Shown piece after piece: positions 1,913 through 62,072 of a stretch of 64,000 nucleotides of DNA. Location: assembly GCA_937885575.1 (NCBI GenBank), contig CALABO010000013.1, positions 46,438 to 110,437 of the forward strand, in the 5' to 3' direction. This DNA is from an uncultured Pseudomonadota bacterium. GTDB lineage: Bacteria; Pseudomonadota; Alphaproteobacteria; Rs-D84. Within the stretch, counting starts at the first letter, position 1. The number at the start of each line of letters is the position of its first letter. The notes under the pieces are model-generated. The model was not told the origin of the DNA, did not search any database, and saw nothing but the letters and a program-made list of their open reading frames with translations. A program made the position numbers and the translations under genes.

Positions 1913-1986
1913 TTAAAAACTCCTTGTGTAAATCTTGACAAAATAATAAGGGATTTTTTTAACCAAGGCAAGGAAAAAGTGACATA

Positions 1987-2068
1987 GTGGTTAGTGTTAG
2001 TGATTAGTGGTTAGTAGTATCTGGAATAAGCCCGTATTTACAAAATTATTCCAGAATATACTAACCAC
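1987..2068. repeat. Palindromic repeat unit, short form (GTGGTTAGTG-type arms + TCTGGAAT / ATTCCAGA core), flanked by TA
   Basis: Left arm gtggttagtgttagtgattagtggttagtagtatctggaat, loop, right arm attccagaatatactaaccac. TA at 1985-1986 and 2069-2070. Related copies lie at 6162, 8323-8603, 22733, 28834, 30005, 60120 and 62021. Confidence 0.85.
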
Positions 2069-3618
2069 TACTCAAATTCATCTGGAATTTCATCGATATC
2101 AATCGATGTTGGTGCGTCTGTTGGTTCGGCCATCGCGGGAACAGCGTTTGTAAATTCGACCGTACGTCCGGCCATTTCGTTCAGGTTATCAAACAAACTA
2201 TATTCCGCCAAGAACGCCACAGTAACCGTATCTGTTCGACCATGACGATTCTTGCCGATGATAATGTCCGCCTTGCCCTTGGCCTTTTCAAGTCGATTTT
2301 GCCACGAATCAACGGATTTTTCACTCGCCGTATTTGAAAGCCGGCGCGACGGGTCGCGATTTTGCAGATAGTATTCTTCACGATATGTGAACATAACAAT
2401 ATCGGCATCCTGTTCAATAGACCCAGATTCACGCAAATCGGCAAGTTGCGGGCGTTTATCATCGCGACTTTCCACACTGCGCGACAATTGCGACAGGGCA
2501 ATAACCGGAACATTAAATTCCTTGGCCATCATTTTAAGGCCGCGTGTAATTTCAGAAAGTTCCTGGACACGATTGTCGTTGCGTTTCCCGCCCGGCAAAG
2601 TCAATAATTGCAAGTAATCGATAACAATAAGTGCAATGCCATTATATTTCCGCGCAAGACGACGCACGCGCGTGCGAATCATCGGCAAAGACATACCCGG
2701 TGTGTCGTCGATGAACAACGGAATACGCCCGATTGCATCGGAAAACTGCGCCATTTTAAGGAAATCTTCATCCGTCAGTGAACCTTCGCGCATTGCGGAC
2801 GACGGGATTCGCGCCTGGGACGCCAAAACGCGTGCCGCCAATTCAGACGCGCCCATTTCCAAACTGAAAAACGCGACCGCACCCTTATATTGTTCATTCG
2901 CGCGCCCAGAATAAATTGCATTTGCGGCGTTGAACGCGATATTCATGGCCAGTGTGGTTTTACCCATACCCGGACGACCCGCGATAATAAGTAAATTCGA
3001 TTTATGCAAACCACTTATTGCGCGGTCTAAATCGGTAAGGCCCGTGGTCAGACCCGAAAGTTTTCCATCGGCCTTGTACGCGATTTCTGCTTCACTCAAC
3101 GCATCTTTTAACGCATTTGCAATTGGCACAACATCGCGCGACGCATCGCCGGTCATGGCAAGGTTGAACAGTTTTTGTTCTGCGGATTCAATCTGTGACG
3201 ACACCGGGTTATCAAGGTCTTCGACAAACGCGGCATCGGTGACCGATTGCCCAAAATCAATAAGTTCGCGCCGCACCGCATTTTCATGAACGATTCGACC
3301 GTATTGTTCGACATTTACGACGGTTGCGCCGGCACCGGCCAATTGGGTCAAGTATTCAACGCCACCAACCGATTCCAATGTCCCTTGCTGGTCAAGGTAG
3401 TTTTTCGCCGTGATTATATCAAATGGGATTCCAGCGGCAAATTGGCGCAGGGCAAGTTTATATATTTCCTGGTGCGCGGGGTGCGAAAAATCTTCAGGCC
3501 GCAAAAATTCGGAAATTTTTTCAAGTGCCCGATTCTTCATTAAAACCGCGGCAAGAACGGCCTGTTCGGCCTCTAAATTCGTTGGCAAAGTTTTGGGAGT
3601 AAAGTCCATGTCAAACAT
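2068..3618 (-). CDS. dnaB: Replicative DNA helicase DnaB
   Basis: 516 aa. N-terminal DnaB domain (LPTNLEAEQAVLAAVL), Walker A GRPGMGKTT, IDYLQL and SQLSR motifs, acidic C-terminal tail. The stop TAG is formed at the repeat edge. Confidence 0.93.
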   Translation of the reverse strand: MFDMDFTPKTLPTNLEAEQAVLAAVLMKNRALEKISEFLRPEDFSHPAHQEIYKLALRQFAAGIPFDIITAKNYLDQQGTLESVGGVEYLTQLAGAGATVVNVEQYGRIVHENAVRRELIDFGQSVTDAAFVEDLDNPVSSQIESAEQKLFNLAMTGDASRDVVPIANALKDALSEAEIAYKADGKLSGLTTGLTDLDRAISGLHKSNLLIIAGRPGMGKTTLAMNIAFNAANAIYSGRANEQYKGAVAFFSLEMGASELAARVLASQARIPSSAMREGSLTDEDFLKMAQFSDAIGRIPLFIDDTPGMSLPMIRTRVRRLARKYNGIALIVIDYLQLLTLPGGKRNDNRVQELSEITRGLKMMAKEFNVPVIALSQLSRSVESRDDKRPQLADLRESGSIEQDADIVMFTYREEYYLQNRDPSRRLSNTASEKSVDSWQNRLEKAKGKADIIIGKNRHGRTDTVTVAFLAEYSLFDNLNEMAGRTVEFTNAVPAMAEPTDAPTSIDIDEIPDEFE

Positions 3619-4471: not shown

Positions 4472-5698
4472 ATGAAATATGACTTACAACAAATGTATTC
4501 ACATGCATTGGCTCTGCGCGAACCATGGATTAAACGTTGGGCCGACGCGCGCCGTTACACAATGCCGACAACCGACGAAGAAATTGCAACACTGTTCGAT
4601 GGAACGGCGGCGGACGCGGCGGATAATTTGGCGGCGTGTATGTATTCATTACTAACCCCGCCGGAATCATTGTGGTTGAACCTTGTCCCTGAATCCGAAG
4701 AATCACCGGACCCGGTTGCGGCAACGATGGCATTGCGTTCGAATCTTAATGAATCTAACTTTTATACAACCATTCATCAATGCTATATAGATTTGGTCAC
4801 AATGGGAACGGCATGCCTGTTTATGTCCGAATCGCCAATTGGCGCGGCAAGTGCGTTTAACTTTACGGCAATCCCGATGACAGACATTGCGATTTTGCCG
4901 AACGCAGTATTCCACACAGCAACCATGACCGCCCAAGAAGTTGCGCGCCGTTATCCCGAATGGACACCACCGCACGCAATCCTTGACGCGATGAAGCAAA
5001 ATCCGGAATACCAATTGCGCCTGGTCCAGGCATTGGTTGACACGGAATTTACCGCATGGATAGATGTCGGTGGCAATCTTGAAAACAACATTGTGTCGCG
5101 TGGCACATTTGAAACGAACCCATACATCATATTCCGCTGGGCCGTGTCCAGTGGCGAACTGTACGGCCGCGGGCCGGTGCTGCGGGCGCTACCTGATATC
5201 AAAACCGCGAACAAGGTCGTCGAACTTGTCCTGAAAAACGCAACCATCGCGGTCAGTGGCATATGGCAGGCCGACGATGACGGCGTAATAAACCTTGGCA
5301 ACATAAACCTTACCCCCGGTGCGATAATCCCAAAAGCGGTGGGCAGTACCGGCCTTACGCCACTTGCAACGGGTGCAAATTTTGATGTGTCGCAAATAAT
5401 TCTAAAAGACCTGCGCGAACGCATCCGCCACACAATGCTTGCGGACAGAATCGGCACGCTTTCGGACAAAGAAATGACCGCAACGGAAATACTTGCGCGG
5501 AATGCGGACATGTTGCGTATATTGGGCGCGACATACGGACGATTGCTGCACGAATTTATCCGGCCGCTTTGCGACCGCGGATTGCAAATCCTTGCGCGGC
5601 GCGGGGTAATCGACAAAATATCACTGCACAGTGACGCGGAATTAAAATACATCGCCCCGATTGCACAAATGGTCGCGGAAAACGGAACATTGATATAA
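4472..5698 (+). CDS. Phage portal / head-to-tail connector protein (possibly truncated)
   Basis: 408 aa directly after the terminase. The N-terminal region (..REPWIKRWADARRYTMP..DGTAADAADNLAA..) resembles podovirus connector proteins by eye. It is short for a portal. Confidence 0.55.
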   Translation: MKYDLQQMYSHALALREPWIKRWADARRYTMPTTDEEIATLFDGTAADAADNLAACMYSLLTPPESLWLNLVPESEESPDPVAATMALRSNLNESNFYTTIHQCYIDLVTMGTACLFMSESPIGAASAFNFTAIPMTDIAILPNAVFHTATMTAQEVARRYPEWTPPHAILDAMKQNPEYQLRLVQALVDTEFTAWIDVGGNLENNIVSRGTFETNPYIIFRWAVSSGELYGRGPVLRALPDIKTANKVVELVLKNATIAVSGIWQADDDGVINLGNINLTPGAIIPKAVGSTGLTPLATGANFDVSQIILKDLRERIRHTMLADRIGTLSDKEMTATEILARNADMLRILGATYGRLLHEFIRPLCDRGLQILARRGVIDKISLHSDAELKYIAPIAQMVAENGTLI

Positions 5699-5711
5699 GG
5701 GGGAAAAGAAA

Positions 5712-5918
5712 ATGGAAAAAATTGCACACGAATACGCCCGCACCTTTGCGGGCGCATCGGGGCGTGCGGTCATTGAACACCTGCGCCGGATAACAATCGA
5801 AAGGGTGCTGGGGCCACATGCAACGGACGGCGAATTGCGCGCACTGGAAGGTGCGCGCGCAATCGTGCATCAAATCGAAACTTTAATTGAACGGGGGCGC
5901 GACAATGCCAAAATCTAA
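5712..5918 (+). CDS. Small phage protein, Bbp19-like
   Basis: 68 aa. ..FAGASGRAVIEHL...LRALEGARAIV.. resembles the small proteins that follow portal genes in BPP-1-like phages. Recognised from memory only. Confidence 0.35.
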   Translation: MEKIAHEYARTFAGASGRAVIEHLRRITIERVLGPHATDGELRALEGARAIVHQIETLIERGRDNAKI

Positions 5919-6162
5919 TGGATTCGCAAACATCATCGATACATTACGCAGTGGTTGGTTCCTTATCGCGTTTATTGCGGGCATGATATATTGGGTGGCG
6001 CGCCAAGACAATGCTCTGGTGGAACTTGACCGATTGACGACGCGCATAACGACACTTGAAAACCGCACGACAATCCTGGAAACCGGAATAGGGCAATTGC
6101 AACTAAAAATCGACGGCATCAAAGAAGACCTGACCCTTATCAAAACAGCAGTGATAAAATAG
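5905..6162 (+). CDS. Small membrane / coiled-coil protein (85 aa)
   Basis: ATG 5905 overlaps the upstream ORF. One TM helix (WFLIAFIAGMIYWV) followed by a heptad-like region. The stop TAG 6160-6162 is formed at a repeat edge. Confidence 0.45.
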   Translation: MPKSNGFANIIDTLRSGWFLIAFIAGMIYWVARQDNALVELDRLTTRITTLENRTTILETGIGQLQLKIDGIKEDLTLIKTAVIK

Positions 6163-6286
6163 TGTTAGTGTAAGTGGGAAGTGGTTAGTATGCTCTGGAA
6201 TTTGTTCGTAATTACGGATTTATTCCAGAGCGCAAAGTTCTCCTCCTGCGGAGGAGTACGGCGTGGAACGCCGGGAGGTGGTCTTT
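6162..6286. repeat. Composite repeat unit: GTGGTTAGTG arm + TCTGGAAT/ATTCCAGA core + CCTCC-hairpin module
   Basis: 6181-6216 is a perfect inverted copy of 8549-8584. The module ttctcctcctgcggaggag..cggcgtggaacgccg..ggaggtggtctttt spans 6238-6286. Confidence 0.85.
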
Positions 6287-6668
6287 TCCCTCTGTCGCGT
6301 CAAAGACGCGACGAACAGAGGTTCGAAGTCGCGCCCATTTCATTTTTATCGTCATACCGCTGTAAAGCGGTATCTGGTGGTTTCAGCCGTGACGACGGGA
6401 TACCGCGTTTCGGCGGCATGACGGCATTTTTATTAGCCCCTTGCACCAACAATCATTTTATGATACAATTCATGTGCCGGCGGGTGTTCCGTTGGTGGGG
6501 TGTAACGACCCTTTTGAGTTGCGTCCAAATTCTGGATGAAAAGTACTCCAACCAATCGGTTGGAGGGCTGTGAATAATATCGGACCATGTCCGATAAAAT
6601 AAACACACAATTCCAACTCAAATTGTCGTTAACCTCCAACCACTTGAAGTAATTCGGTGGTTTTTTGA

Positions 6669-6719
6669 TTCCCCTTTCTGGGGAAAGGGGTGTCGCCGAA
6701 CGGCGACAGGGTATGGGTG
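6669..6719. repeat. Solo CCTCC-hairpin module (degenerate)
   Basis: Sequence ttcccctttctggggaaaggggtgtcgccgaacggcgacagggtatgggtg. It shows the same two-hairpin layout as the DUF559 cassette termini. Confidence 0.6.
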
Positions 6720-6735
6720 AAAAAAGAGAGAAACC

Positions 6736-8319
6736 ATGAAAAAATTTTTAACCGTTTTATGTTTATGCTTTGTATCAATTGATGTGTCGGCCGCCACGTA
6801 TGCATGTATAATGCAAGAAAAAGAAACTCTTATGCATGGCAGGTTAAGCGCAGGTGGTACGGAATTTTTATATTGTGGACATGTTGAAGACAAAGGGTGT
6901 GATGAAGGTGATGTAGTAAAGGGAGACAGAGAAAATGTGGCTAATCTTTTATGGAAATGTCATAATCATCATTGGATAAAAGTAGGTGAATCAGAGATTA
7001 GAGATTGCTCGTTGACAGAGAATTTAACAAATGAAGCGGTTGATGCGGTAAGCGAGACATCTAAATATGTGTTATATGGTGAATCTGACATGAGAAAACT
7101 TCATGATGGAGAAGAAGTCAAGAGTTGGGCTATCAAAGGTGGAATTGCTGGTGTATGCAAGATTAATTTAGCAGAGGCAAGAAAAGAGTGTGAAAAATCT
7201 GGCGGGACGCTAGAAGGCAGATATTGTAACTGTTCAAAGGATGGATATGCGCAAGGTGCAAATTTGACGGCACCGTGTGAGTGTGCGGATGGTTTGAAAA
7301 GAGGGGCCGATAACAAATGTTGGCCGGCACAATATGTTGATGGAAAGTGCTTGGTATACTTAAACCATATATATGATTGCCCACTTCCCGACGTTGGTCA
7401 CGAAGTAAATGGAATATTGTTTACCTATCTTGATAAGTATCGGTGTTCTTTTGTTTATAAAGATAGTAATTATTATCGTCTTTGTAATGATAATGGTAAA
7501 ATTATTAAAAAAATTGGTGTGGCATGTCCTGGATTTGATGATGAGTTAGCGTGGAATGCTTATGGAGAAGGTCGTTATAATCAGGAGGAAGATAAAGATG
7601 GTTTTCCGTGTATTAAACCTAAACCAGAATCCAAATACAACTATAAATCTTGTTCGGCTGATTCTGATTGCACGGGAATTGATAACACGGTGCGACCGTA
7701 TTTGCATTCGACGGCGTGGCACTGTGCGTGGCAAAGTGCGGGTGTGCGTGTTTGCGCCGCAACCGCGTGTGAATCGGGATGGACGCCGATAAATGGATAT
7801 TGCCAGGAAGACAAAACCGCGCAAACACCACAATCCGAAAATAAAAATGCTAATTCGGTATCCAATATCAAAACCGAAACGAAAGCGGGCACAAAGAAAC
7901 CCTGTACTGATTTGGATAATATGGATTCGAATTGCAAATGCATTGTTGTGGGAACGGTGGAACGTGGTGGAAAGTGCGTGTGTCGTGACGATAACCAAGA
8001 AATCAAAAATGGCAAATGTGAATGGACGGCAAAATATATTGCGGGGTTGGAAAGCGACCTTGATAGCAAATTTAACAATCTGACCGCAACGATTGGCGGG
8101 TTCGAAAAAAATGTATGGCGCGATGAAAATGGCGAATTTAACACCGCGCGCCTTGCGTCGGACAGTATTGCCGGTATTGTGCTGGGGACCGTTGGCGGAA
8201 TTGTGACGGCGAACCTTGTCAAAAAAGCCCAGGTTAAACAGGGATTTGAAGATATCGGTTGCTATATCGGCGGTCAATCCGTCGCCGGTTTCGGTGATGA
8301 ATTTAATGTTGGACGGTAA
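6736..8319 (+). CDS. Cysteine-rich secreted / membrane-anchored protein (527 aa)
   Basis: Signal peptide MKKFLTVLCLCFVSIDVSA. Many Cys in short-spaced clusters (CECADGLKRGADNKC; CKCIVVGTVERGGKCVC). C-terminal hydrophobic helix IAGIVLGTVGGIVTANLV. Visibly AT-richer than neighbours. Confidence 0.7.
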   Translation: MKKFLTVLCLCFVSIDVSAATYACIMQEKETLMHGRLSAGGTEFLYCGHVEDKGCDEGDVVKGDRENVANLLWKCHNHHWIKVGESEIRDCSLTENLTNEAVDAVSETSKYVLYGESDMRKLHDGEEVKSWAIKGGIAGVCKINLAEARKECEKSGGTLEGRYCNCSKDGYAQGANLTAPCECADGLKRGADNKCWPAQYVDGKCLVYLNHIYDCPLPDVGHEVNGILFTYLDKYRCSFVYKDSNYYRLCNDNGKIIKKIGVACPGFDDELAWNAYGEGRYNQEEDKDGFPCIKPKPESKYNYKSCSADSDCTGIDNTVRPYLHSTAWHCAWQSAGVRVCAATACESGWTPINGYCQEDKTAQTPQSENKNANSVSNIKTETKAGTKKPCTDLDNMDSNCKCIVVGTVERGGKCVCRDDNQEIKNGKCEWTAKYIAGLESDLDSKFNNLTATIGGFEKNVWRDENGEFNTARLASDSIAGIVLGTVGGIVTANLVKKAQVKQGFEDIGCYIGGQSVAGFGDEFNVGR

Positions 8320-8350
8320 ATAGTGGTAGTGTAAGTGATAAGTGTTAGTG

Positions 8351-8373
8351 CGGGCGCGGTTGCGCCCGTTTTT
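8351..8373 (+). terminator. Intrinsic terminator after the Cys-rich gene
   Basis: Stem-loop cgggcgc-ggtt-gcgcccg followed by ttttt. Confidence 0.7.
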
Positions 8374-8397
8374 GCGCAAAAATTCCAGAGTACGAGG

Positions 8398-8527
8398 TTC
8401 TCCTCCTGTGGAGGAGTACCCGAAGGGGGAGGTGGTCTTTTATAAATATAAAATATCTGGAATATGAAAGACCACCCCGTCCGCTTTCGCTATCGCTGCA
8501 GCGAGACACCCCTCCACAGGAGGGGAA
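8398..8527. mobile_element. ORF-less inverted pair of CCTCC-hairpin modules (MITE-like shell of the DUF559 cassette)
   Basis: 8398-8441 (..ggaggtggtctttt) and 8467-8527 (aaagaccacc..) are inverted copies separated by 25 nt. The termini have the same architecture as at 37405/37850 and 53665/54190, but there is no ORF. Confidence 0.6.
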
Positions 8528-8602
8528 CTTAGCTTTCTGGAATAACCACGTAATTACGAACAAATTCCAGAGCATACTAACCACTAACACTTACACTACC
8601 CA

Positions 8603-8944
8603 CTAAAACGCATTTTTTGTCCAATCGATATGTCGGCCGTGGACAATTATAACATCGAACCGTGCATCGCCCGTCCATCGCCGTTGCAGTAAAAATGTTT
8701 CCGCCGCCAATCGCAGCCGCCTTTGTTGTGCGGGCGTAATTGCGCCCCAGGCGGTCATTACCTCTTTGCGTTTTTTTACTTCAACAAAAATAATAAGTTT
8801 CCCGCGTTTTGCGATTATATCAATTTCTGCGCGCCCAGTGTTTCGCCCGGTTGTATAACGCCGATGCAAAATCCTAAACCCGTGCAGAATTAAAAACACG
8901 CACGCAAAAAATTCTGAAAAAATTCCGGTCTTGTATGAATCCAT
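8603..8944 (-). CDS. yraN: YraN-family (UPF0102) endonuclease-like protein
   Basis: 113 aa. Contains ..GRAEIDIIAKRGKLIIFVEVKKRK.. PD-(D/E)xK-like pattern typical of YraN. The stop TAG is formed at a repeat edge. Confidence 0.75.
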   Translation of the reverse strand: MDSYKTGIFSEFFACVFLILHGFRILHRRYTTGRNTGRAEIDIIAKRGKLIIFVEVKKRKEVMTAWGAITPAQQRRLRLAAETFLLQRRWTGDARFDVIIVHGRHIDWTKNAF

Positions 8945-18502: not shown

Positions 18503-18579
18503 CTTATCATAAAAACACTTTGTTTATAACAATTTTTATGATAAAATATAGGGAACAAAAACGAAGGGGGAATTCTATC

Positions 18580-21500
18580 ATGCCGATAAATCAAAATGTA
18601 GATAAAAAAGAAGCACAAAAAATGTATGATAAAGAGGTTGCGCGCTTTGCAAAGCGAATTGCCGCGGCATACAGCAGTGACAAGATTCGGCTTGTTACGT
18701 CACGCAATGCCCGTCGTGCGGTGCTTTTGCATGATATTGATGCGATAAATGACATTATCAAAGATATTCCCAATATGCCTGCCGGTTTTCAGTCGGATTT
18801 CTGTGATGCATTTATCGGCGAAGATATGGCGGGACTGGACCTGGCAACGCCCGCAATTTTAGGATATGCGTACCGCGCCATTTCTGCGCGTGCGGCCGGG
18901 GGTGAACCGGGGCAACAAGACCGCCTTGATAAACTTGCGGCGCGCATCGACGATTTGTCGGCGGATTTTGCAAATTCCGGTGGTATGGTTGTTCGTCAAA
19001 ATGAATGGCCGCTGATAAATATGACAAATATCGCCAACGAAAATGAAGATTTTAGCATTATGCTTGATGCGCGTATGTCGGATGTTGACGGTGCAAAAAA
19101 AGCCGAAATGGCCGCGAATAAAGAGCATGCAGATATAGTCGCCCAAAATTATGATGAGGCATGGAATCTGGATAATCTGAATCCCGAAGATGTTGATAAA
19201 CTGGCCGACCGCGCGGATGAAGTTTATGAAGTTTTGCATGATGCGACCATTCGTGAAGATGTAATGAAGAAACTCGCAAAGGTCAAAATGCTTGATGCCA
19301 AGGGGCGGGTAATACCACAATTTGCATCCGGAAAACGTGGCGACTATGACGAATATGAAAACTATGAACCTGGTTTTGAAATTTTGCACGATAGTCGTTA
19401 TGAATCAATTGCTGAACTTGTGGAACATGATATTGCGAAAAGGTACATCGCAGATGTTAATGCCGAGATTGATAAAGATACAATTGAAGACGAATTTAAT
19501 GAAACAATCTTAATAAAGTTATACGAAATTTACGCTGCGGACCAGATTGTTCGTGGCGCGGCCGAAACCCCAGAACAATTTGATGACCCGAAATTTCGTA
19601 AAGAGTTTGAAAAAATGCTTGAACCTGACGGTGATGGCGTTGAAATTTCTGATAACGGGTATAATGTTGCAATCGAAACGCAAACCGATGCAACCGTGGG
19701 TTGGTTCGCGCGTCTAAGAAGAAAAATCGGTGGCGATGGCAAGAAACTTGAAAAACTTTGGAAAAAGTTAAACCGTTCACTTGAACGCGTCGATGATATG
19801 GCGGATGTTCGTATGTCGCGTGCGGCGGTAGAGCGGCGCAAAAAACGTCGTAATTTTGCCGGACGTGTCTTAATCGGATTCACCAGTTCGTTTATCGCAA
19901 GTGCGTTTATAACCGTAAGTGCGACCGCGGCGGCGGCAAGGCTGGGCAAATCACTCGCGTGGGGGTCTGTTTACGTCGGTGGTGGTGCGGCGCTTGGAAT
20001 TATGGGATTCCAGATTGCGCGTTGGATACGAAACCAGAAAAAGAATAATCTGCCGGTTAGTTGGGAAGAATTCAAAAAAAATAAACAACTTGTGCGGTCG
20101 CTTATGACCAGTGGCCTTGCGATTGTCGCCATGGTTCTTAGTGCCCTTGGCTTGGCGGGTGTTGGAATGGCCGTTGGTATCGGTGCCGCGGCACTTGGTG
20201 CATATAATAATGGTCGTGGCGTATTCGAAGCGGCGCGTGATGTTAAAATGTCGCGTCGTCAAAGAATCGCATGGACGATTGCAAATGTTGCATCAGTTAT
20301 CTTCGGTGCGCTCGGCGGGAAAAGTTTCGCCCAGTGGGGCATTGGTAAATATAATGAATGGAATCCAGGTAATAAGTGGTTCAATAATAAAACTGCGGTT
20401 CCGGGTGAACCTAAAAAGGTCTCGGACGAAATCACCCATGAAAGGACAATTATGCATTATCCGGATAAAATGTTGCAAAGTGCAAAGGATGCTGTTGAGG
20501 GTTGGTATGCGCACGATTATCCAAATCATCCGGAAATTTTGCAACAGGATATCGATGCCGTAAATCAATATAATCTGGATCACGATACAAACCTTGATCC
20601 GTATCGTATATTGCGAGCAATGAAAATATCACAACCGTCGCGTTTGGCGTACACACCTGCATGGAGTGACACGTACAATGTCCCGCAAGAATTGATTTCT
20701 CAGGCGGCACATGCGGTTGGGGGCGGTGTCTATGATCCCGCCGGTATGGAGGCAGCCAAATTCCTGGATGCAAACTATCTCGGTGAATCCGGAAATGTTG
20801 GCGATGTCCCCATGGGGCATACAATAAACAAAACTTATTCTCCGATTACGGAATTGCCGACCCAAACCACCGAAACTGTGATTGATCAGCCGGCGCGTTA
20901 TGAATCAACGGGTTATGACGTTAGGACAGAACCTGTTGGTGTAAATGCGGGTTACGGTGCATTTGGAAACTATCCAAGACGCGACCGCGCGTCCGCTAAA
21001 ACGACGGTCGGGGACAAGGTTGCATTATTGCATGATCGTATTGGTTCGTTCCTTGATCGGGTTCGTCGTAATCGTCAAAATGAATCTGTGTCAGAAGATG
21101 TTCCACTGGTTGTTCACGATGATGAACTGAAAGATGAAGTGCCACCGATTGTCTTGGATAAACGGGATGAAGAATTGCGTATCCCAGAGGGAAAGACCAC
21201 ATCGCCGGCGCGCCAAAAGGAATATGTGGCACCAGTGGTCAATTTATCACAAACGCAACAGGTGCCCGATTTGCGCTTAAAAGATATGCCGGTTGCGTTG
21301 CCGGATCCCGAAAGCCGGAAATATGAACCATATTATGATTTCGCATTGACCGAAGCGCAGGCCGAACGTTGGAATAATTTGCATAAACAACTTGCGACCA
21401 TTCGTGCAGAAATGAAAAGTCGGTCCACGCGCGCAGATAAATTCCTTAAACTCCGTAAACAGGCAAATCGCCTTACTGATGAAATAAATTCGTTTACGGC

Positions 21501-22695
21501 GGAACTTGGAAACCCAACCGTATTTCAGGTAGAACAGGCGTTGGCTGAAATTGAACGTCGCAAAAAGTTAAAGGATTTGATCGCGCAATACGAACGTCAT
21601 ACGCGTAACGAACCTTCTGGGGACAATGTACCAAAATGGCGTGTCCAAAAATGGGAAGAAGAACTGTCAAAATTAGTTGATAAAATCGAGGCCCTTGGTG
21701 GTGCGGATTCGTTGGATGATTCTAACCTTCGGTTTGCGGCACCAACCCTTGGGCGATTTGAACAAAAACAGGCAGAAGTCGCCCAGCGCGAGAAAGAAAG
21801 ACAAGAACAAAAGCGTGATGTTTTTGTGATGCCGATGCGCGAACAACCAAAAGAAGTGGAAGAACGGCGTTCAACAGAACCTGAAGAGAAAAAGCAAGAT
21901 ACTAACGTTTCATCGAGACCGTTTGATTTTGAACATCAAAAACCAATGTTAAAGTCATTTATGTTGAAAAATTTGATTACTTATCCATTGATGGATGTGC
22001 GCGGGGTCCCGGTTAAACTTTTGGATTTGACGGGTAATGGTAACCCTGTTATGAAAAGTGACGAACATGCAATTGTTGTGGTTGATGTTGATGGATTGCG
22101 TATACCATTTTTCCGTGCCAATGGTGACGAAGAAAGAAATTTGTTAAATCCTGGGTTGCTAATCCCGGGAAATTGGTATCCGGTATTTAGTATAGCAAAT
22201 GATGGTGAACTGTTTATCGGGCCAACATTGGATTATTTGAACAGAATACATAGCGATAAAGAAGAGGTTCGTCTGGCGGCCAAAATTCGATACCTTAATG
22301 AAATAGCCAAAAAATTGGATGCACAAATTGGTAATATAGCCGCTGATGAACAAATTGACGGAAAAAAGCTTATTAAAATTGTAGACCATCAACCAAAACA
22401 ACCGTTGAATACGGATATGCCCAGATTGTTTTGGGGCGGAATAGGCTGTTTAAGTTCGGCATTGCGGGATGTTAAATGGTTTTTCAATAACGTACGTTCG
22501 ATCGATTATACCAAAGAACAAGAAAAACAAGAATGGCGCGAGGAACGTGATGAAAATCGTCGTGAAAATCGTAACTTTCGTCATCAAAAGTGGCAAGGAT
22601 TTGTTTCCGGTATTGGTAATGCTGCCGGGCGCGCCATTGATAGTGTTCGTGGACGTTTCTTTGGATGGGACGAAGATTCAAATGAATACGAATAA
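18580..22695 (+). CDS. Giant hypothetical membrane protein (1371 aa)
   Basis: ATG 18580 with an AAGGGGG RBS. A central cluster of hydrophobic helices is flanked by long charged / coiled regions. No catalytic motif recognised. Confidence 0.7.
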   Translation: MPINQNVDKKEAQKMYDKEVARFAKRIAAAYSSDKIRLVTSRNARRAVLLHDIDAINDIIKDIPNMPAGFQSDFCDAFIGEDMAGLDLATPAILGYAYRAISARAAGGEPGQQDRLDKLAARIDDLSADFANSGGMVVRQNEWPLINMTNIANENEDFSIMLDARMSDVDGAKKAEMAANKEHADIVAQNYDEAWNLDNLNPEDVDKLADRADEVYEVLHDATIREDVMKKLAKVKMLDAKGRVIPQFASGKRGDYDEYENYEPGFEILHDSRYESIAELVEHDIAKRYIADVNAEIDKDTIEDEFNETILIKLYEIYAADQIVRGAAETPEQFDDPKFRKEFEKMLEPDGDGVEISDNGYNVAIETQTDATVGWFARLRRKIGGDGKKLEKLWKKLNRSLERVDDMADVRMSRAAVERRKKRRNFAGRVLIGFTSSFIASAFITVSATAAAARLGKSLAWGSVYVGGGAALGIMGFQIARWIRNQKKNNLPVSWEEFKKNKQLVRSLMTSGLAIVAMVLSALGLAGVGMAVGIGAAALGAYNNGRGVFEAARDVKMSRRQRIAWTIANVASVIFGALGGKSFAQWGIGKYNEWNPGNKWFNNKTAVPGEPKKVSDEITHERTIMHYPDKMLQSAKDAVEGWYAHDYPNHPEILQQDIDAVNQYNLDHDTNLDPYRILRAMKISQPSRLAYTPAWSDTYNVPQELISQAAHAVGGGVYDPAGMEAAKFLDANYLGESGNVGDVPMGHTINKTYSPITELPTQTTETVIDQPARYESTGYDVRTEPVGVNAGYGAFGNYPRRDRASAKTTVGDKVALLHDRIGSFLDRVRRNRQNESVSEDVPLVVHDDELKDEVPPIVLDKRDEELRIPEGKTTSPARQKEYVAPVVNLSQTQQVPDLRLKDMPVALPDPESRKYEPYYDFALTEAQAERWNNLHKQLATIRAEMKSRSTRADKFLKLRKQANRLTDEINSFTAELGNPTVFQVEQALAEIERRKKLKDLIAQYERHTRNEPSGDNVPKWRVQKWEEELSKLVDKIEALGGADSLDDSNLRFAAPTLGRFEQKQAEVAQREKERQEQKRDVFVMPMREQPKEVEERRSTEPEEKKQDTNVSSRPFDFEHQKPMLKSFMLKNLITYPLMDVRGVPVKLLDLTGNGNPVMKSDEHAIVVVDVDGLRIPFFRANGDEERNLLNPGLLIPGNWYPVFSIANDGELFIGPTLDYLNRIHSDKEEVRLAAKIRYLNEIAKKLDAQIGNIAADEQIDGKKLIKIVDHQPKQPLNTDMPRLFWGGIGCLSSALRDVKWFFNNVRSIDYTKEQEKQEWREERDENRRENRNFRHQKWQGFVSGIGNAAGRAIDSVRGRFFGWDEDSNEYE

Positions 22696-22724
22696 AAACA
22701 TGGGGCACAGCCCCATGTTTTTTG
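22696..22724 (+). terminator. Intrinsic terminator
   Basis: aacatgggg-caca-ccccatgtt followed by ttttg. Confidence 0.8.
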
Positions 22725-22732
22725 TTCATGGT

Positions 22733-22766
22733 TACCCCACTAACCACTAACACTTATCACTAACAC
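22733..22766. repeat. Right-arm fragment of the palindromic repeat family
   Basis: Sequence taccccactaaccactaacacttatcactaacac. Confidence 0.7.
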
Positions 22767-22811
22767 TTTTATGTTTCTTATCACAAAAATTTATGATATA
22801 ATACAACCGTT

Positions 22812-28700: not shown

Positions 28701-28777
28701 TGGCGCACCCAGAAGGATTCGAACCCTCAGTCTTCTGATCCGTAGTCAGACGCTTTATCCAGTTGAGCTATGGGTGC
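28701..28777 (-). tRNA. tRNA-Arg (anticodon ACG)
   Basis: 77-nt cloverleaf on the minus strand with anticodon loop cTACGga, T-loop TTCGAAT and encoded CCA. Confidence 0.9.
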
Positions 28778-28833
28778 AACGCGTATTATTCTATACCAAA
28801 ATATCCCGATTGCAAGAAAAAAGATTTCACAAA

Positions 28834-28973
28834 GTGGTTAGTGCTAGTGTAAGTGGTTAGTAGTGTCTGGAATAAATCTGTAATTGCGCAATAATTCCAG
28901 AAAGCAAAGTTCCCCTCTCGAGATGGGTGGCCGAAGGCCGGGGTGTGGTTCTCTAACCACTACCACTAACCAC
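28834..28973. repeat. Composite palindromic repeat, long form (arms + core + embedded CCTCC module 28910-28954)
   Basis: Left arm gtggttagtgctagtgtaagtggttagtagtgtctggaat, then ..attccagaa-agcaaag-ttcccctc..ggggtgtggtt, then right arm taaccactaccactaaccac. TA at 28974-28975. Confidence 0.85.
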
Positions 28974-29899
28974 TACATACTTTCCAATCGTCGAATCCTT
29001 TCCGCAATCGGTGGGTGGGTTGCCATAATTTCGCCAAAAAACGCGCGCGTCCGTGTTGGGTTCGCGATGCATATTGCCGCCATCGTTTTGCGCCCATCAA
29101 GGTTTTTAACAACCGAATGTTCCGAAATTTTACGCAGTGCCGTCGCGAGTGCCCGCGGATTTCGGGTTATGTACGCACCCGTCGCATCCGCCGCATATTC
29201 ACGCCGCCGCGAAATCGCCATATGCAAAATCGGCGAAATCACAACATTGAAAAGTGTGAACGCCAACCACACCATCATTATCACCGCCGCGCCATTGTTT
29301 TTATCATCGCCATCCGAACGCGCATACATCATATTCCGCGCCAGCATATCCGCAATAAAGACCGTCACGCCAATGCCGGTAATGATGAACATGCTAAGCC
29401 GTATGTCGCGATTGCCGATGTGTGCCATTTCGTGGGCGATTACACCCTCCAGTTCCGGTCGGTCCAATTTTTCGATAATTCCACGGGTGAGCGCCACCGT
29501 CGCATCACGCGGCCCGCGCCCCGTTGCGAACGCGTTAAGGCCACCGTCTTCGATAACATAAACCCGTGGTGTTGGCAACCCGGCGGCGATTGCGACATTT
29601 TCCACCGATTTATAAACATACCTGTATTCTGGGTCGGTGTCGCCTATCTGCTTTGCGCCCGCCATGGAAAGCATCATCGAATCCCCAAACGCCCATGATA
29701 TCAGCATCCAAACGGCGCACACAGCAATCGTCGGCACCGCCACCATAGTGGTTGTATTGATTGCATCATTTAACGGTTGCACACACCAAACACAGATGAA
29801 CACCAACGCAATAAAAATAACCGGAAACAGCACCACCAACACCGCGGTTTTTATGTTGTTTGCACGTATATGGTCATAAACAGTTTTGACTTTTTTCAT
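28973..29899 (-). CDS. htpX: Zinc metalloprotease HtpX (M48)
   Basis: 308 aa from ATG 29899. HEMAHIGNRD motif and TM helices. The stop TAG is formed at a repeat edge. The ORF-track 5' extension runs through a repeat. Confidence 0.88.
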   Translation of the reverse strand: MKKVKTVYDHIRANNIKTAVLVVLFPVIFIALVFICVWCVQPLNDAINTTTMVAVPTIAVCAVWMLISWAFGDSMMLSMAGAKQIGDTDPEYRYVYKSVENVAIAAGLPTPRVYVIEDGGLNAFATGRGPRDATVALTRGIIEKLDRPELEGVIAHEMAHIGNRDIRLSMFIITGIGVTVFIADMLARNMMYARSDGDDKNNGAAVIMMVWLAFTLFNVVISPILHMAISRRREYAADATGAYITRNPRALATALRKISEHSVVKNLDGRKTMAAICIANPTRTRAFFGEIMATHPPIAERIRRLESM

Positions 29900-30004
29900 A
29901 CCCCAATCATACCGAAACCATCCCACAGAATTCAAGAAATTTTTGCTTACACCAAACCAGGGCAAAGCCCTGGCACAGTCTCGGCACCGCACCAGCGGTG
30001 ACGG

Positions 30005-30031
30005 ATAACCACTTACACTTGCACTGGCCAC
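30005..30031. repeat. Right-arm fragment of the palindromic repeat family
   Basis: Sequence gataaccacttacacttgcactggccac followed by TA. Confidence 0.6.
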
Positions 30032-30055
30032 TAAATATGATAAAATACATACATA

Positions 30056-42909: not shown

Positions 42910-43042
42910 AAGTTTTTTATTAGAAATCCGGGCGTTTGCACCGGATTTTTTGTTTTTTATGCAAAATTACTGGTGCGGATAATGTTTTGAATTTTCAACA
43001 TTTTTTGCTTTGACACACTTGAAAAATAAAGGAAAATTAACT

Positions 43043-47821: not shown

Positions 47822-47823
47822 AA

Positions 47824-48553: not shown

Positions 48554-48557
48554 TATT

Positions 48558-58278: not shown

Positions 58279-60120
58279 ATGGTAAAATTACACGAATATA
58301 TTGAACCCGAAGATAACCTTGAACCGGATCTTGAATTGGATTCTGATACAGGGGAAGATTTATCTGTGCATGTTTCAAACGAAAAACCGGGCAAAAAGAA
58401 AAAAAACGCGGCATCAAATTCAAATGATGAACGGGTGTATTTTATGGCGCTTGGCGGATTGGAACACGTTGGGCAAAATATGTACCTTTACAAATACAAG
58501 AATAAATTTATCGTGGTTGATTGCGGCATGGGATTTTTGGAAGAGGAAATCGGTGCCGGCGATGTGCAGTATTGCGATACAAAATGGCTTGAAAAACATA
58601 AGAAAGATGTTATCGCGTTCGTTATCACGCATGGGCACGAAGATCATATTGGCGCACTTAAATACATTTGGCCAAAATTCCGCAAACCGATTTATTGCAC
58701 GCGTTTTCCGGCGGAAATTTTGCGTCAAACTTTTCGTGGCATTGAATTGGACTTTGACCCAAAGCGCGACATTATTGAATTTGATGCGGCGGGCGCGACA
58801 TTGAAACTTGACCCTTTTGAAATTGAAACTTTCCACGTAAGTCATTCTGTGCCAGAGGCGCAAATGTTAATTATCAAAACCGGCGCGGGCAAGATTTTAC
58901 ACACTGGCGATTGGACATTTAATGATGATAATCCGATTGAACCGGGGACGGATTATGCGCGCCTGCGTGAAATTGGTTCGGATCCGCGGCTTATTGCGTG
59001 CGCGTGTGATTCGACATCTGTGTCGCGCCAAAATCCGCAAACAACGGAAATTCAGGTTCGTGACACACTGACGCAAATTATGCGTGACGCGCCGGGGCGC
59101 GTTATTGTCACGGGCTATTCACGCAGTATCGCGCGATTGAAGATGTTTGCCGAGGCCGCACGCGCAACGGGCCGTATGGCGGCGATAAAGGAACGCAGTA
59201 ATCCAAATCCCGTGCCATACGTTGGTTTGCCGGAATTCCGTGAAATGGGAATTGAATTCAAATATTTGGCCGAAAATGATATTTACCAATATTCGGAAAT
59301 CAAAGATTTGCCGGCGGAAAAACAGGCGATATTCCTAACGGGATCCCAGGGCGAAAAATACGCAATGCTTACGCGCCTTTGCCGCGGCCAGGTAAAGGAA
59401 ATGAAACTTATGCCGACGGACACGGTCGTGTTCAGTGCGATTATTATTCCCGGCCGCGAACAAGATGTTTCGTTCCTGTATAACAAACTTGCGAAAATGG
59501 GAATTCGGACTCACACGATTTACGACACCGACCATGTGCACGCCAGTGGCCACGCCGGCCGGCCAGAACTTGAACGATTCTATGATATGGTCCATCCCCA
59601 GGTTTCAATCCCGATGCATGGCGATTATATAAACGAAATGCTGAACGGGAAAATGGCGATGGAACGCGGCGGCGCAAAGCATATGATGTTGGTGCGAAAT
59701 GGCGAAATGATTGCACTGGGCGATGGTGCGGAACCATATGTATGCGAAACAATCGAAACCGGATATGTTGTGATGGAGGGCGAAACCGAACGCAGTGCCA
59801 ATGACCCTGTTTACAAAAATCGCAAGAAAATCGCATCGAACGGCGCGATATTTGTGACATTACCGGTGGACAAGCGCGGATACCTGAAGGGCACGCCAGA
59901 GGTTTCCAGTGCGGGCATTTTTGAATCTGATACGACCGGGTTTATGAAGCGTCAAATTCAAATCGAAATTACCAAGGCGATTGATGAATTGTCGAAAACC
60001 GAACGCAAATCCCAAGATAACCTGATTCGTGCGGTTCAAACGGCGGCGAACAAGGTTGTGCGCGCATCGCTTGGCGCGGATAAAAAACCGCAATACAGTG
60101 TGCACTTTGTGCAGAAGTAG
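58279..60120 (+). CDS. rnj: Ribonuclease J
   Basis: 613 aa. HGHEDH metallo-beta-lactamase motif and beta-CASP layout, with a charged N-terminal extension. The stop TAG is formed at a repeat edge. Confidence 0.88.
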   Translation: MVKLHEYIEPEDNLEPDLELDSDTGEDLSVHVSNEKPGKKKKNAASNSNDERVYFMALGGLEHVGQNMYLYKYKNKFIVVDCGMGFLEEEIGAGDVQYCDTKWLEKHKKDVIAFVITHGHEDHIGALKYIWPKFRKPIYCTRFPAEILRQTFRGIELDFDPKRDIIEFDAAGATLKLDPFEIETFHVSHSVPEAQMLIIKTGAGKILHTGDWTFNDDNPIEPGTDYARLREIGSDPRLIACACDSTSVSRQNPQTTEIQVRDTLTQIMRDAPGRVIVTGYSRSIARLKMFAEAARATGRMAAIKERSNPNPVPYVGLPEFREMGIEFKYLAENDIYQYSEIKDLPAEKQAIFLTGSQGEKYAMLTRLCRGQVKEMKLMPTDTVVFSAIIIPGREQDVSFLYNKLAKMGIRTHTIYDTDHVHASGHAGRPELERFYDMVHPQVSIPMHGDYINEMLNGKMAMERGGAKHMMLVRNGEMIALGDGAEPYVCETIETGYVVMEGETERSANDPVYKNRKKIASNGAIFVTLPVDKRGYLKGTPEVSSAGIFESDTTGFMKRQIQIEITKAIDELSKTERKSQDNLIRAVQTAANKVVRASLGADKKPQYSVHFVQK

Positions 60121-60228
60121 TGGATAGTGGTTAGTGTAAGTGGGTAGTGGTTAGTAGTGTCTGGAATTGGTTCGTAATTGCGGATTTATTCCAAGATACT
60201 ACTAACTACTAACACTCCCCACCAACAC
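60120..60228. repeat. Palindromic repeat unit, short form, flanked by TA
   Basis: Left arm gtggatagtggttagtgtaagtgggtagtggttagtagtgtctggaat, loop, right arm attccaagatactactaactactaacactccccaccaacac. TA at 60118-60119 and 60229-60230. Confidence 0.85.
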
Positions 60229-60298
60229 TAATAACTTTTCTCTGGACATTGAAATTTAATTTCTATACAATGAAAACGCAAAACAAAAAGGAAGGAAA

Positions 60299-62020: not shown

Positions 62021-62072
62021 GCCACTAACACTGACACTAAAAAAAATCCCGCATGCGCGGGATTTTTTATTT
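62021..62072. terminator. Right-arm repeat fragment followed by a bidirectional terminator downstream of cspA
   Basis: gccactaacactgacac followed by aaaaaaaatcccgc-atgc-gcgggatttttt. Confidence 0.7.

Follow-up and report, generated by a model that had tools for sequence, protein, structure and literature searches.

A TA-ended palindromic repeat family of rumen Candidatus Enterousia that supplies TAG stop codons to neighbouring genes

Repeat sites in the window

The window, that is, the whole 64-kb stretch of DNA analysed here, carries the Pfam-identified genes for DnaB (2068-3618, minus strand), UPF0102/YraN (8603-8944, minus strand), M48/HtpX (28973-30103, minus strand) and RNase J (58279-60120, plus strand), together with orf85 (5887-6162, 91 aa from a TTG start), for which no Pfam match was obtained. 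Eight sites of one repeat family are distributed over this stretch (Table 1). All of them had been listed in an earlier, sequence-only reading, and each listed site was confirmed; the coordinates given there were correct overall, except that the rnj element ends at 60230 and not at 60228.

Forward arrays of AGTG units are located at 1978-2016, 6161-6190, 8322-8350, 28833-28862 and 60119-60156, and reverse arrays of CACT units at 8575-8604, 22738-22767, 28958-28981, 30010-30032, 60200-60216 and 62023-62038. No array appeared in 20 dinucleotide-preserving shuffles of the window, and the core octamer TCTGGAAT is present 14 times against 1.5 expected, a count that none of 100 shuffles reached. These shuffles, and the absence of arrays from ~1 Mb of DNA of more distant, array-free relatives, rule out chance or a low-complexity artefact. 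Further arrays of at least three units were not found elsewhere in the window. Outside the eight sites, single units show no excess (TAGTGGT once against 8 expected, GTGGTTAG once against 1.8) and therefore DNA uptake sequences (DUS/USS) could be ruled out as well.

Table 1. Positions of the repeat elements and their component parts in the window
Feature	Position	Strand	Remarks
dnaB element, long arm distal from dnaB	1978..2019		AAGTGACA TAGTGGT TAGTGT TAGTGAT TAGTGGT TAGTAGTA; orthologous copies known; adjoins -35 region of downstream HTH gene promoter
dnaB element, central palindrome	2020..2055		TCTGGAAT-N20-ATTCCAGA
dnaB element, short arm	2059..2070	-	TACTAACCACTA; last unit TAG TGG (minus strand) = dnaB stop, 2068-2070
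orf85 arm	6160..6193	+	first TAG (6160-6162) = orf85 stop
orf85-side central palindrome	6194..6229		inverted relative to 8536-8571; 36 nt GTGGTTAGTATGCTCTGGAATTTGTTCGTAATTACG common to yraN-side copy
Module 2, double GC-rich hairpin	6230..6287	+	GTTCTCCTCC..GGAGGAG.., GGCGTGGAACGCC, GGAGGTGG
Arm after ORF 6736-8319	8321..8350	+	begins 1 nt past TAA stop (8317-8319) of secreted Cys-rich ORF
Composite core	8351..8535		terminator-like hairpin CGGGCGCGGTTGCGCCCG+T5, 8351-8373; half palindrome ATTCCAGA, 8382-8389; module 2 forward, 8390-8441
Composite core, remainder	8456..8535		lone TCTGGAAT, 8456-8463; module 2 reverse, 8464-8535
yraN-side central palindrome	8536..8571		
yraN arm	8572..8605	-	outermost unit (CTA 8603-8605, minus-strand TAG) = yraN stop
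Solo reverse-orientation array	22735..22768		just downstream of intrinsic terminator 22700-22724 following ORF 18520-22695
htpX element, distal arm	28832..28862		adjoins tRNA-Arg (28701-28777)
htpX element, central palindrome	28866..28901		
Module 2 copy within htpX element	28903..28951		
htpX arm	28951..28975	-	outermost unit 28973-28975 (minus-strand TAG) = htpX stop
Solo degenerate array	30008..30035		divergent region, htpX / M23 peptidase gene
rnj arm	60118..60159	+	first TAG (60118-60120) = rnj stop
rnj element, central palindrome	60160..60195		3' half decayed to ATTCCAAG
rnj element, decayed distal arm	60197..60230		TACTACTAACTACTAACACTCCCCACCAACACTA
Solo array	62021..62040		abuts A/T runs of bidirectional terminator 62041-62069, downstream of cold-shock gene 62067-62399 (minus strand)

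Anatomy of the element

The elements are non-coding and have a median length of ~118 nt, most copies ranging from 79 to 180 nt. Two inverted arms of ~30 nt each, in which 7-nt and 6-nt units alternate (TAGTGGT / TAGTGT / AAGTGN), enclose a 36-nt palindrome of the form TCTGGAAT-N20-ATTCCAGA, to which extra modules may be added. Terminal inverted repeats are thus present, the left arm having the consensus TAGTGGTTAGTGTAAGTGGATAGTGGTTAGTA and the right arm being its reverse complement, and 90% of the arm units carry a stop codon. Alignment comprised 89 hairpin-bearing copies from the window and from the loci L001-L075. Consensus of the 36-nt palindrome across copies is TCTGGAATAATTTCGTAATTACGAAATTATTCCAGA, a perfect palindrome, and the differences between copies are one-sided transitions, in line with descent from a palindromic master copy.

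Nested modules are seen in some copies, either module 2, which is a GC-rich palindrome, or an intrinsic terminator. Module 2 is a separate repeat family that occurs also in array-free relatives; the composite sites at 6162, 8323-8603 and 28834 carry it as a second, independent module. The terminator-carrying composite variant is present at four or more different sites within one MAG, so composites themselves have been copied.

Stop codons supplied by the element

For dnaB, orf85, yraN, htpX and rnj, the stop is found where the sequence-only reading had placed it, and in each case it is the TAG of the outermost arm unit. Every one of these TAGs (CTA on the plus strand for the three minus-strand genes) is followed by TGG or TGT, and therefore the five stops are the first unit of an arm. 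In a sixth gene (6736-8319), a TAA stop and one A precede the arm.

DnaB terminates in ..IPDD.. and its stop is TAA in nearly all array-free relatives. The C-termini of YraN (..KNAF/KNAI), orf85 (..TAVIK), HtpX (..RLESM) and RNase J (..HFVQK) are likewise conserved up to the stop, which is mostly TAA in array-free relatives and TAG followed by TGG or TGT in array-bearing genomes. Among the stops of the array-free relatives, only 12% are TAG. Since array-free orthologues of all five proteins end at the same residue with identical C-termini, mostly at a TAA, the element swaps the stop codon and leaves the protein unchanged; its terminal TA plus G replaces the native stop, in agreement with the earlier suggestion of a regenerated TAG. 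At locus L077 a single element of ~105 nt exactly fills a convergent gap and supplies TAG to both genes. An altered C-terminus is seen in L017, where the protein ends in ..IKVDSVSG compared to ..IKVGN in L061.

Distribution and turnover among genomes

The family is confined to one subclade of rumen Candidatus Enterousia, which are Alphaproteobacteria with genomes <1 Mb; 74 of the 75 loci (L001-L075) come from 20 MAG species of rumen Alphaproteobacteria / Ca. Enterousia. Arrays are also lacking from the loci of relatives with 88-89% identity in RNase J. The element is present at the dnaB, yraN/orf85, htpX and rnj sites in some lineages and missing there in others, and even strains with 96-98% identical DnaB vary in module content and at the junction, which reads TAG TGG, TAA TTAGTG, TAG TAGTGG or retains only a remnant. 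Copies within the genome are only 75-90% alike, and many sites are common to several species. Signs of current transposition were not seen. Two matches were obtained in IMG/VR, both being the same dnaB/portal contigs as L076 and L077, and carriage by phages was therefore rejected. Exact-protein look-ups of five window proteins returned nothing on record.

Element ends and candidate empty sites

TA is found at ~70% of the ends (50 of the 71 left and 51 of the 71 right ones). The left TA is preceded by T in 25 of 34 elements and the right TA is followed by A in 22 of 34 (T-TA-A context). The first unit is preceded by A or T in 113 of 129 arrays. No target duplication longer than TA was detected for 1-4 extra bases. 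The TA ends pointed out in the sequence-only reading are therefore real for most copies, but the duplication proposed from them was not matched by any clean empty/filled pair among the flanks compared. Moreover, because TA also belongs to the repeat unit, its presence at the ends is not independent evidence of duplication. An A after the far-end TA, as predicted from an ancestral TAA, is found in 13 of 20 elements; this does not discriminate, since the same 65% holds across all elements.

Pairwise comparison of flanks yielded no clean empty sites, each candidate being diverged or containing unit-like remnants. Sites that lack the element in close relatives keep such remnants (AAGTGGGTA in L061, TAGTAGTGGTTAGTGTT in L078) and look like products of deletion rather than virgin targets. 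The rnj and orf85/yraN elements are not simple insertions, because ~60 nt of the ancestral terminator is missing.

Enrichment at gene ends

A census of 139 independent arrays was compiled from the window, loci L001-L075 and close dnaB relatives after removal of orthologous duplicates. Two arrays fall within called genes. An array is present in 34% of convergent gaps, in 15% of tandem and in 8% of divergent ones. Among the 97 gene-facing arrays, the stop is the first TAG of the array in 35, lies 1-8 nt upstream of the array in 28 and deeper inside it in 13. Under a model in which all TA dinucleotides of 3' intergenic DNA are hit with equal probability, the exact-stop class would be expected to make up 14% overall and 25% in convergent gaps, giving binomial probabilities of 3e-8 and 0.009, respectively, for the observed 35 of 97. 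There is thus an enrichment of arrays both at the 3' ends of genes and at stop codons, as had been anticipated, in agreement with the earlier proposal of gene termini as neutral landing sites. The excess over this TA-only model is modest, only ~1.5-2.5 fold.

RNA structure and transcription termination

The strong 3'-end bias, especially in convergent gaps, raises the possibility that the element is kept by host selection as 3'-end punctuation, combining a stop in all frames and on both strands with a stable RNA hairpin. Such a hairpin might end or insulate transcripts, protect mRNA 3' ends or provide an RNase III site, replacing intrinsic terminators in a shrinking genome. The predicted hairpins range from -35 to -55 kcal/mol with z-scores of -4.3 to -7.7. 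Canonical terminators lie between orf85 and yraN and after rnj in array-free relatives, whereas array-bearing genomes have only the element at these two places. One subfamily carries a bidirectional intrinsic terminator between its arms at several sites. The element of L077 serving two convergent genes and the conservation of many sites across species are also consistent with selection by the host.

However, the inner stem does not show compensatory evolution and pairs less often than shuffled controls do, with 324 paired cells compared to a control mean of 358, and the arms have not co-evolved, their complementarity to each other (15.7) being no higher than to foreign arms (17.4). Rfam gave no match in the search except tRNAs. 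A conserved RNA structure was rejected on these grounds. Selection for stops in the arms was rejected too, as the stop content of the units (0.90) is what base conservation predicts (0.91). The basic element lacks the features of an intrinsic (rho-independent) terminator, having an AT-rich stem and no T-run or U-tract; U-tract terminators are confined to the terminator-bearing subfamily (half-palindrome plus terminator) and some composites. In addition, copies decay or get deleted between close strains. The role as terminator or insulator that had been suggested for the hairpins has circumstantial support from the two places where elements stand instead of terminators and from one subfamily, while the evolution of the hairpin itself speaks against it, and we regard host-selected punctuation as possible though rather unlikely.

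A related reading, which we consider unlikely, is that a selfish foldback repeat has been domesticated as the standard gene-end signal of these <1-Mb genomes. It would then provide the stop for one or both convergent genes, an all-frame ribosome block and a replacement for the terminator, acting either through its long hairpin, RNase III-processed or not, or through AGTG-periodic binding sites for a host protein. The AGTG periodicity is conserved without arm-to-arm co-evolution, which hints at recognition of sequence rather than structure.

Possible targeting of stop codons

The preference for stops could also reflect structure- or sequence-directed homing, in which the element or a lost enzyme would specifically recognise stop codons or the foot of terminator hairpins, comparable to insertion sequences with REPs or terminators as their targets. 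Arrays of the exact-stop class (35) are far more numerous than those whose ORF continues into the arm by one or two further frames (7 at +6/+7 and 5 at +11 to +20), a second large class begins exactly past the T-run of a terminator (TTTTTT followed by TAGTG), and the T-TA-A context equals T plus TAA. Nevertheless, an excess of ~1.5-2.5 fold can be obtained from selection against insertion into promoters, ribosome-binding sites and terminator stems, and some copies are located in 5' regions or change the C-terminus, as in L017. Special homing to stop codons is not needed, because TA targeting and purifying selection in very short intergenic regions explain the modest enrichment, and we consider it improbable.

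Search for a transposase and other repeat classes

Neither an IS630/Tc1-like transposase, for which the sequence-only reading had proposed a search, nor any other transposase turned up in the window or in the ~0.7 Mb of clade DNA fragments that were sampled. Genes flanked by inverted arrays are all housekeeping where Pfam identifies them (peroxiredoxin, UDG, aldolase, MFS, M48), and the remaining ones have no Pfam match. Insertion sequences, sought as long within-MAG repeats, were not detected; this search gave only paralogous secreted proteins. ORF 6736-8319, which lies between inverted copies, was considered as a transposase or as part of a composite transposon and both readings were rejected, since it encodes a Cys-rich secreted protein with a signal peptide; it has no Pfam or PHROG match, and its slot contains a different ORF or none in other strains. 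Tyrosine recombinases are represented in the window by a single one, which is part of a tRNA-Gly island 35 kb away from this variable slot. Integron attC cassettes were ruled out by eye, as the GTTAGTG/CACTAAC units misfit the inverse core RYYYAAC and the core GTTRRRY.

A further improbable reading would class the family as REP/REPIN-type, in which a single-copy RAYT (IS200/IS605-like tyrosine transposase) would have spread the short palindromes and the arms would be accessories. It is in line with a 36-nt palindrome at gene 3' ends in the order of 100 copies per genome (extrapolated), with BIME-like mosaic clustering, with the GTAG that many copies have immediately 5' of the palindrome (TTAGTAGNNTCTGGAAT) and with the lack of a DDE transposase in the DNA searched. 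However, GTAG does not adjoin all copies (TTAGTATGC, TTAGTAAAA), the long symmetric TA-ended inverted arms are typical of DDE-type MITEs and not of REPs, and none of the proteins scanned, whether from the window or from arm-flanked genes, has a Y1_Tnp match.

Proposed origin

Taken together, the family is probably a lineage-specific, small non-coding mobile repeat of foldback type, a MITE-like and TA-ended mosaic for which stop codons are neutral landing sites. It may have been amplified in the ancestor of the rumen Candidatus Enterousia subclade, inserting at TA in a T-TA-A context. The transposase would probably have been of a TA-duplicating DDE type (IS630/Tc1-mariner-like) and may since have been lost. 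G is the first base of the element proper, so that an insertion at the TA of TAA or TAG would rebuild TAG and leave the protein untouched. Surviving copies would accumulate at stops and at the TA after a terminator T-run, as intergenic gaps of 20-50 nt offer few harmless targets. Later, arm units may have been gained and lost by slippage, modules may have nested into one another, and palindromes may have been deleted to leave remnants of one or two units, while native terminators beside the elements appear to have been lost at some sites.

The family has practical consequences. Gene callers will report TAG stops and small spurious ORFs within the repeats, TAG will be inflated in the stop-codon usage statistics of these MAGs, and palindromes of 100 nt about every 8 kb will break contigs during MAG assembly. 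If the elements also replace terminators, they would offer a compact model of how reduced genomes recycle selfish DNA as gene punctuation.

Comparison with known systems

The BOX, RUP and SPRITE elements of Streptococcus pneumoniae are close precedents. In S. pneumoniae ATCC 700669, the extreme 3' end and stop of 36 CDSs lie in BOX, with no evidence of protein truncation (PMC3049150), and pneumococcal repeats cluster and insert into one another (PMC10969869). BOX and the present family are both modular mosaics of non-coding repeats at gene ends with a variable number of internal subunits. However, they belong to different phyla and share no sequence similarity, BOX is organised as boxA-boxB(n)-boxC instead of inverted arms of 6-7-nt units around a palindrome, and here it is the very first triplet of the element that forms the overlapping stop. 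Another pneumococcal interspersed repeat has a terminator-like hairpin (PMC10969869) and resembles our subfamily of half-palindrome plus terminator, although only a minority of the elements here carries a canonical terminator.

RUP is an IS630-Spn1-dependent MITE of ~107 nt with terminal inverted repeats, TA insertion, stops in six frames and an intergenic location (PMC2229807), all of which parallel the family described here. In contrast, a partner insertion sequence with matching ends has been identified for RUP and none was found here, the RUP arms are not tandem subrepeats, and the regular overlap with stop codons, common here, was not found reported for RUP.

According to the accounts cited, the Correia/NEMIS elements of Neisseria are TA-flanked MITEs of 100-155 nt near genes, whose transcript hairpins can be cleaved by RNase III and whose 155-bp form has stops in all frames (PMC2229807, PMC2649163). 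They differ in occurring in Betaproteobacteria and in carrying an IHF site and promoter elements in addition to a defined 26-nt inverted repeat. The Correia inverted repeat starts with TATAGTGGATTAA, similar to TA+TAGTGGATAG here, but this resemblance over the first 10 nt may be due to chance. Copies of QMITE1 and QMITE2 of Coxiella burnetii, also a reducing genome, extend 1-50 bp into the 3' ends of functional genes with little change in protein size (PMC5896051). Their overlap is variable and C-terminal residues are changed, whereas here an exact 3-nt overlap without change is the commonest.

REPs can influence translation when they lie no further than ~15 nt from a stop codon. In enterobacteria, REP/BIME sequences are described in the cited account as high-copy extragenic palindromes at 3' ends with a mosaic arrangement (PMC2817692); our family differs in its long TA-ended inverted arms, in its unit structure and in that no RAYT was found. 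Its architecture, and only that, is also similar to the foldback transposons of eukaryotes, which are kilobase-scale. Their inverted arms consist of short tandem subrepeats in variable number around a small loop. Galileo, in the account cited, is an example with long foldback-like TIRs (PMC3688188).

The literature found to mention Candidatus Enterousia consists of MAG surveys and metabolic reconstructions only, and the family has apparently not been described before. The principle is already documented, with stop-encoding repeats, TA-ended MITEs and terminator-bearing repeats known from pneumococcus, Neisseria and Coxiella; the family presented here adds an unusually clean natural case of a mobile repeat sitting on the stop codon at no cost.

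Repeat arrays in the window

All eight repeat sites claimed by the sequence-only reading are present in the window, a density of 8 sites in 64 kb which, extrapolated, would give about 100 sites per genome. The arm unit is a degenerate stretch of 6-7 nt with an invariant AGTG core. Forward and reverse arrays (runs of such units) were located by scanning for it and are listed in the table with other features; no further arrays were found elsewhere in the window. A chance origin is ruled out by 20 dinucleotide-preserving shuffles of the window, which gave 0 comparable arrays, together with the excess of the octamer TCTGGAAT (14 occurrences in the window versus 1.5 expected). Stops of dnaB, orf85 (the ORF at 5887-6162), yraN, htpX and rnj (the RNase J gene) lie exactly at the coordinates which that reading gave, and Pfam confirmed the products DnaB, YraN (UPF0102), HtpX (M48) and RNase J. 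In all five, the stop TAG runs on into TGG or TGT, so each represents the outermost arm unit. A sixth gene, at 6736-8319, ends in TAA-A and the arm begins directly after it.

Coordinates of arrays, module 2 copies and low-GC island genes in the window
Feature	Position	Strand or orientation	Remark
Forward arrays	1978-2016, 6161-6190, 8322-8350, 28833-28862, 60119-60156	forward	unit scan of window
Reverse arrays	8575-8604, 22738-22767, 28958-28981, 30010-30032, 60200-60216, 62023-62038	reverse	unit scan of window
Module 2	6230-6287, 8390-8441, 8464-8535, 28903-28951		within arm-bearing elements
Module 2	53663-53725, 54100-54190		without arms
Tyrosine integrase	43010-44578		low-GC island
DUF5906 protein	44699-46498	-	low-GC island
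Rep ORF2/G2P-like protein	47010-47549		low-GC island
PLD-like protein	50972-51655	-	low-GC island

Architecture of the element

A pattern scan with the 19-base AGTGGTTAGTANNNTCTGGAAT, taking one genome per species, returned 75 loci (L001-L075), 74 of them from 20 rumen Alphaproteobacteria / Candidatus Enterousia MAG species; the remaining one, in a Bacillus, was set aside as a chance match. Alignment of 89 element copies and counting of their units revealed two inverted arms of ~30 nt each, made of 7-nt TAGTGGT and 6-nt TAGTGT or AAGTGT units in alternation. The consensus is TAGTGGTTAGTGTAAGTGGATAGTGGTTAGTA for the left arm, the reverse complement of this for the right arm and TCTGGAATAATTTCGTAATTACGAAATTATTCCAGA for the central palindrome. 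Median element length is 118 nt, and the predicted hairpins are very stable (-35 to -55 kcal/mol, z-scores -4.3 to -7.7). Across all copies (e.g. window 2028-2047 and 6202-6221), variation in the palindrome consists almost wholly of one-sided transitions at two CG dinucleotides (CG to TG or CA) and the adjacent T/A, a pattern that would be compatible with methylated cytosines in TCGT/ACGA having been deaminated.

Modules are optional. Among 86 complete copies sorted by core type, 40 have a simple core, 19 a core with module 2 and at least 6 half a palindrome with a bidirectional intrinsic terminator. Four terminator-bearing copies stand at different sites of one MAG, so the composite itself was copied. 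Several of the 86 carry a GC-rich palindrome in an arm, always at TTAGT^GTGTTAG. This palindrome is 33 nt long (CCGTCACGACCGCGGCGCGGCGTGCCGCGACGG; L020, L023, L027, L069, L082 and L003) and absent from the window. It represents either a nested insertion at a specific site or an arm variant that was propagated.

Module 2 is a double GC-rich hairpin of sequence AAGTTCCCCTC..GAGGGGTG..GGGGTGG. It occurs without arms and also in array-free relatives (L120, L098 and L119; in tandem after orf85 in L120), and is therefore a separate, older repeat family. Two copies of 48 nt from the 3' end of alaS (53613-53660 and 54191-54238, 87.5% identity) enclose module-2-like repeats and a small gene (53727-54071, minus strand), a flanking duplication that suggests insertion at the end of alaS.

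Replacement of native stop codons

After removal of orthologous duplicates, 139 independent arrays remained, 97 of them facing ORFs of 100 codons or more. The ORF stop coincides exactly with the array's first TAG in 35 of the 97, lies 1-8 nt upstream in 28 (several resembling a decayed first unit, e.g. TAATGAT or TAGTCGA), deeper within the array in 13, further upstream in 19 and at another position in 2. Fourteen of the 19 fall at 26-48 nt, a range in which the full array listing mostly shows a terminator with its T-run abutting the array. Were every TA of the 3' intergenic sequence in array-free relatives an equally probable target, 14% of insertions would be expected to hit a stop codon, or 25% for convergent gaps. 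At 36%, the observed share is above both values (P = 3e-8 and 0.009, respectively), by no more than 1.5 to 2.5 fold. Arrays are present in 34% of convergent, 15% of tandem and 8% of divergent gaps, and two lie inside called genes.

YraN (...KNAF/KNAI*), orf85 (...TAVIK*), HtpX (...RLESM*) and RNase J (...HFVQK*) have the same C-termini with or without the element; their stops are mostly TAA in array-free relatives, where TAG makes up only 12% of all stops, and always TAG, the first arm unit, in array-bearing ones. Array-free DnaB ends in ...IPDD(xx)* with TAA, and the next gene's promoter follows directly, at nearly all of ~70 loci; array-bearing dnaB junctions read TAG TGG..., TAG TAGTG..., TAA TAGTGG... 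or TAA TTAGTG.... Identical C-termini with TAA exchanged for TAG indicate that the native stop gives way to the TAG of the element with no change to the protein. This comparison of orthologue ends supports the earlier proposal that the element regenerates a stop, and, together with the excess of exact-stop positions, the proposal that gene termini are neutral landing sites. Insertions are not always silent, as one pair ends in ...IKVGN* (L061) and ...IKVDSVSG* (L017).

Target site and mobility

Elements terminate in TA at 50 of 71 left and 51 of 71 right ends. Just outside this TA, 25 of 34 elements have a T on the left and 22 of 34 an A on the right, giving a T|TA|A context; in 113 of 129 arrays, an A or T stands immediately ahead of the first unit. 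No direct repeat longer than TA was found flanking the element. The pattern agrees with insertion at TA accompanied by TA duplication, the mode of IS630/Tc1-mariner-derived MITEs, RUP among them. The TA ends are no proof of duplication because TA is also part of the repeat unit. Of the TA target duplication that had been suggested, the TA at ~70% of ends stands and the duplication itself is unproven, with no clean empty site among close relatives lacking the element. Such relatives carry unit-like remnants (AAGTGGGTA in L061; TAGTAGTGGTTAGTGTT fused to the distal flank in L078; a decayed stub in L081), which look like palindrome deletions and not virgin targets.

A search for an IS630/Tc1-like transposase, which the sequence-only reading had envisaged, found no transposase by Pfam among 37 window and locus proteins. 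Pfam-identified genes between inverted arms are all housekeeping (peroxiredoxin, UDG, aldolase, MFS transporter, M48), and the remaining ones had no Pfam match. The ORF at 6736-8319, between inverted copies of arm, palindrome and module, is not an enzyme; it encodes a Cys-rich secreted protein.

Long within-MAG repeats comprise only paralogous secreted proteins. Several secreted paralogues in one MAG, JAZLAT (L014:2096-4390 and 4743-5702; L051; L074:1537-2931), have a ~190-aa N-terminal region in common and divergent C-termini, and may belong to a variable family of surface proteins or adhesins. The orf85-yraN gap is a variable slot (window 6230-8535; L077:7345-7475; L079:1200-2800), holding a 527-aa Cys-rich secreted protein gene between inverted arm, palindrome and module 2 copies in the window, an unrelated ORF in L079 and one simple element only in L077. 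Repeats at this slot may be recombination points for surface-protein gene swaps.

Distribution and genomic surroundings

Candidatus Enterousia, placed within the uncultured order Rs-D84 in the taxonomy record, has genomes mostly <1 Mb (PMC12306168). Searching metagenomes with DnaB yielded 80 loci that form a graded series, with identities falling from 98% to 67%. At DnaB identity of at least 84%, arrays of at least three units occur at five loci (L076, L077, L079, L082 and L085), remnants of one or two units only at L078, L081 and L083, and no array at L080, L086 and L087. Zero arrays were found in L086 to L155, ~1 Mb, and none in the 21.8-kb loci of lineages with 88-89% identical RNase J. Element copies in the window are 75-90% alike and many sites are common to several species, so amplification is old; present-day variation concerns unit number, module content and deletion.

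A low-GC island (42833-51700; 31-39% versus ~46% elsewhere) adjoins tRNA-Gly (42833-42909) and looks like an integrated mobile element; it holds no element copies. Beside dnaB lies a T7-type portal / head-tail connector gene (4472-5698; Pfam Head-tail_con, E = 3e-81), whose neighbour orf85 stays next to dnaB throughout the graded series. IMG/VR lists contigs from here as viral (L156 = L077, L157 = L076); possible explanations are a domesticated phage or GTA-like remnant and misclassification.

Possible role at RNA 3' ends

Canonical terminators are present between orf85 and yraN in array-free L088, L087 and L081, and after rnj in array-free L065 and L159-L168. At both sites, array-bearing genomes have the element alone, or an arm with a new terminator (L158). 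In L077, one ~105-nt element exactly fills the convergent orf85-yraN gap and provides TAG for both genes. These site differences and the terminator-carrying subfamily point to a possible role at RNA 3' ends, and the same observations make exaptation of the element as terminator or insulator a secondary possibility. However, inner-stem variation consists of one-sided transitions (paired cells 324 versus 358 in shuffles), the arms of one element show no closer match to each other than to foreign arms, and the stop content of units equals the prediction from base frequencies; no Rfam family matched the element. Because these three tests argue against selection for structure, we prefer a mobile-repeat history, in which stop codons would have served as neutral landing sites.

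Comparison with known repeat families

The sequence-only reading is thus confirmed in its observation and partly supported in its interpretation, and every trait of the family has precedent. BOX, in which the stop codon of 36 pneumococcal CDSs lies within the element without truncation (PMC3049150), is a precedent for repeat-supplied stops, and RUP, a MITE of 107 nt that targets TA and carries stop codons in each of the six frames (PMC2229807), for TA targeting by a stop-rich element. SPRITE is a precedent for a terminator-like repeat, and pneumococcal repeats, which nest within one another, for nesting (PMC10969869). The hairpin traits are paralleled by Correia/NEMIS, whose hairpins RNase III binds and either cuts or protects (PMC2229807; PMC2649163), and overlap with gene 3' ends by QMITEs in Coxiella (PMC5896051). 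Arms built of 6-7-nt tandem units resemble the architecture of eukaryotic foldback elements. Particular to the present family are these tandem-unit arms, the very regular exact 3-nt stop overlap and the uncultured, genome-reduced rumen alphaproteobacterial host.
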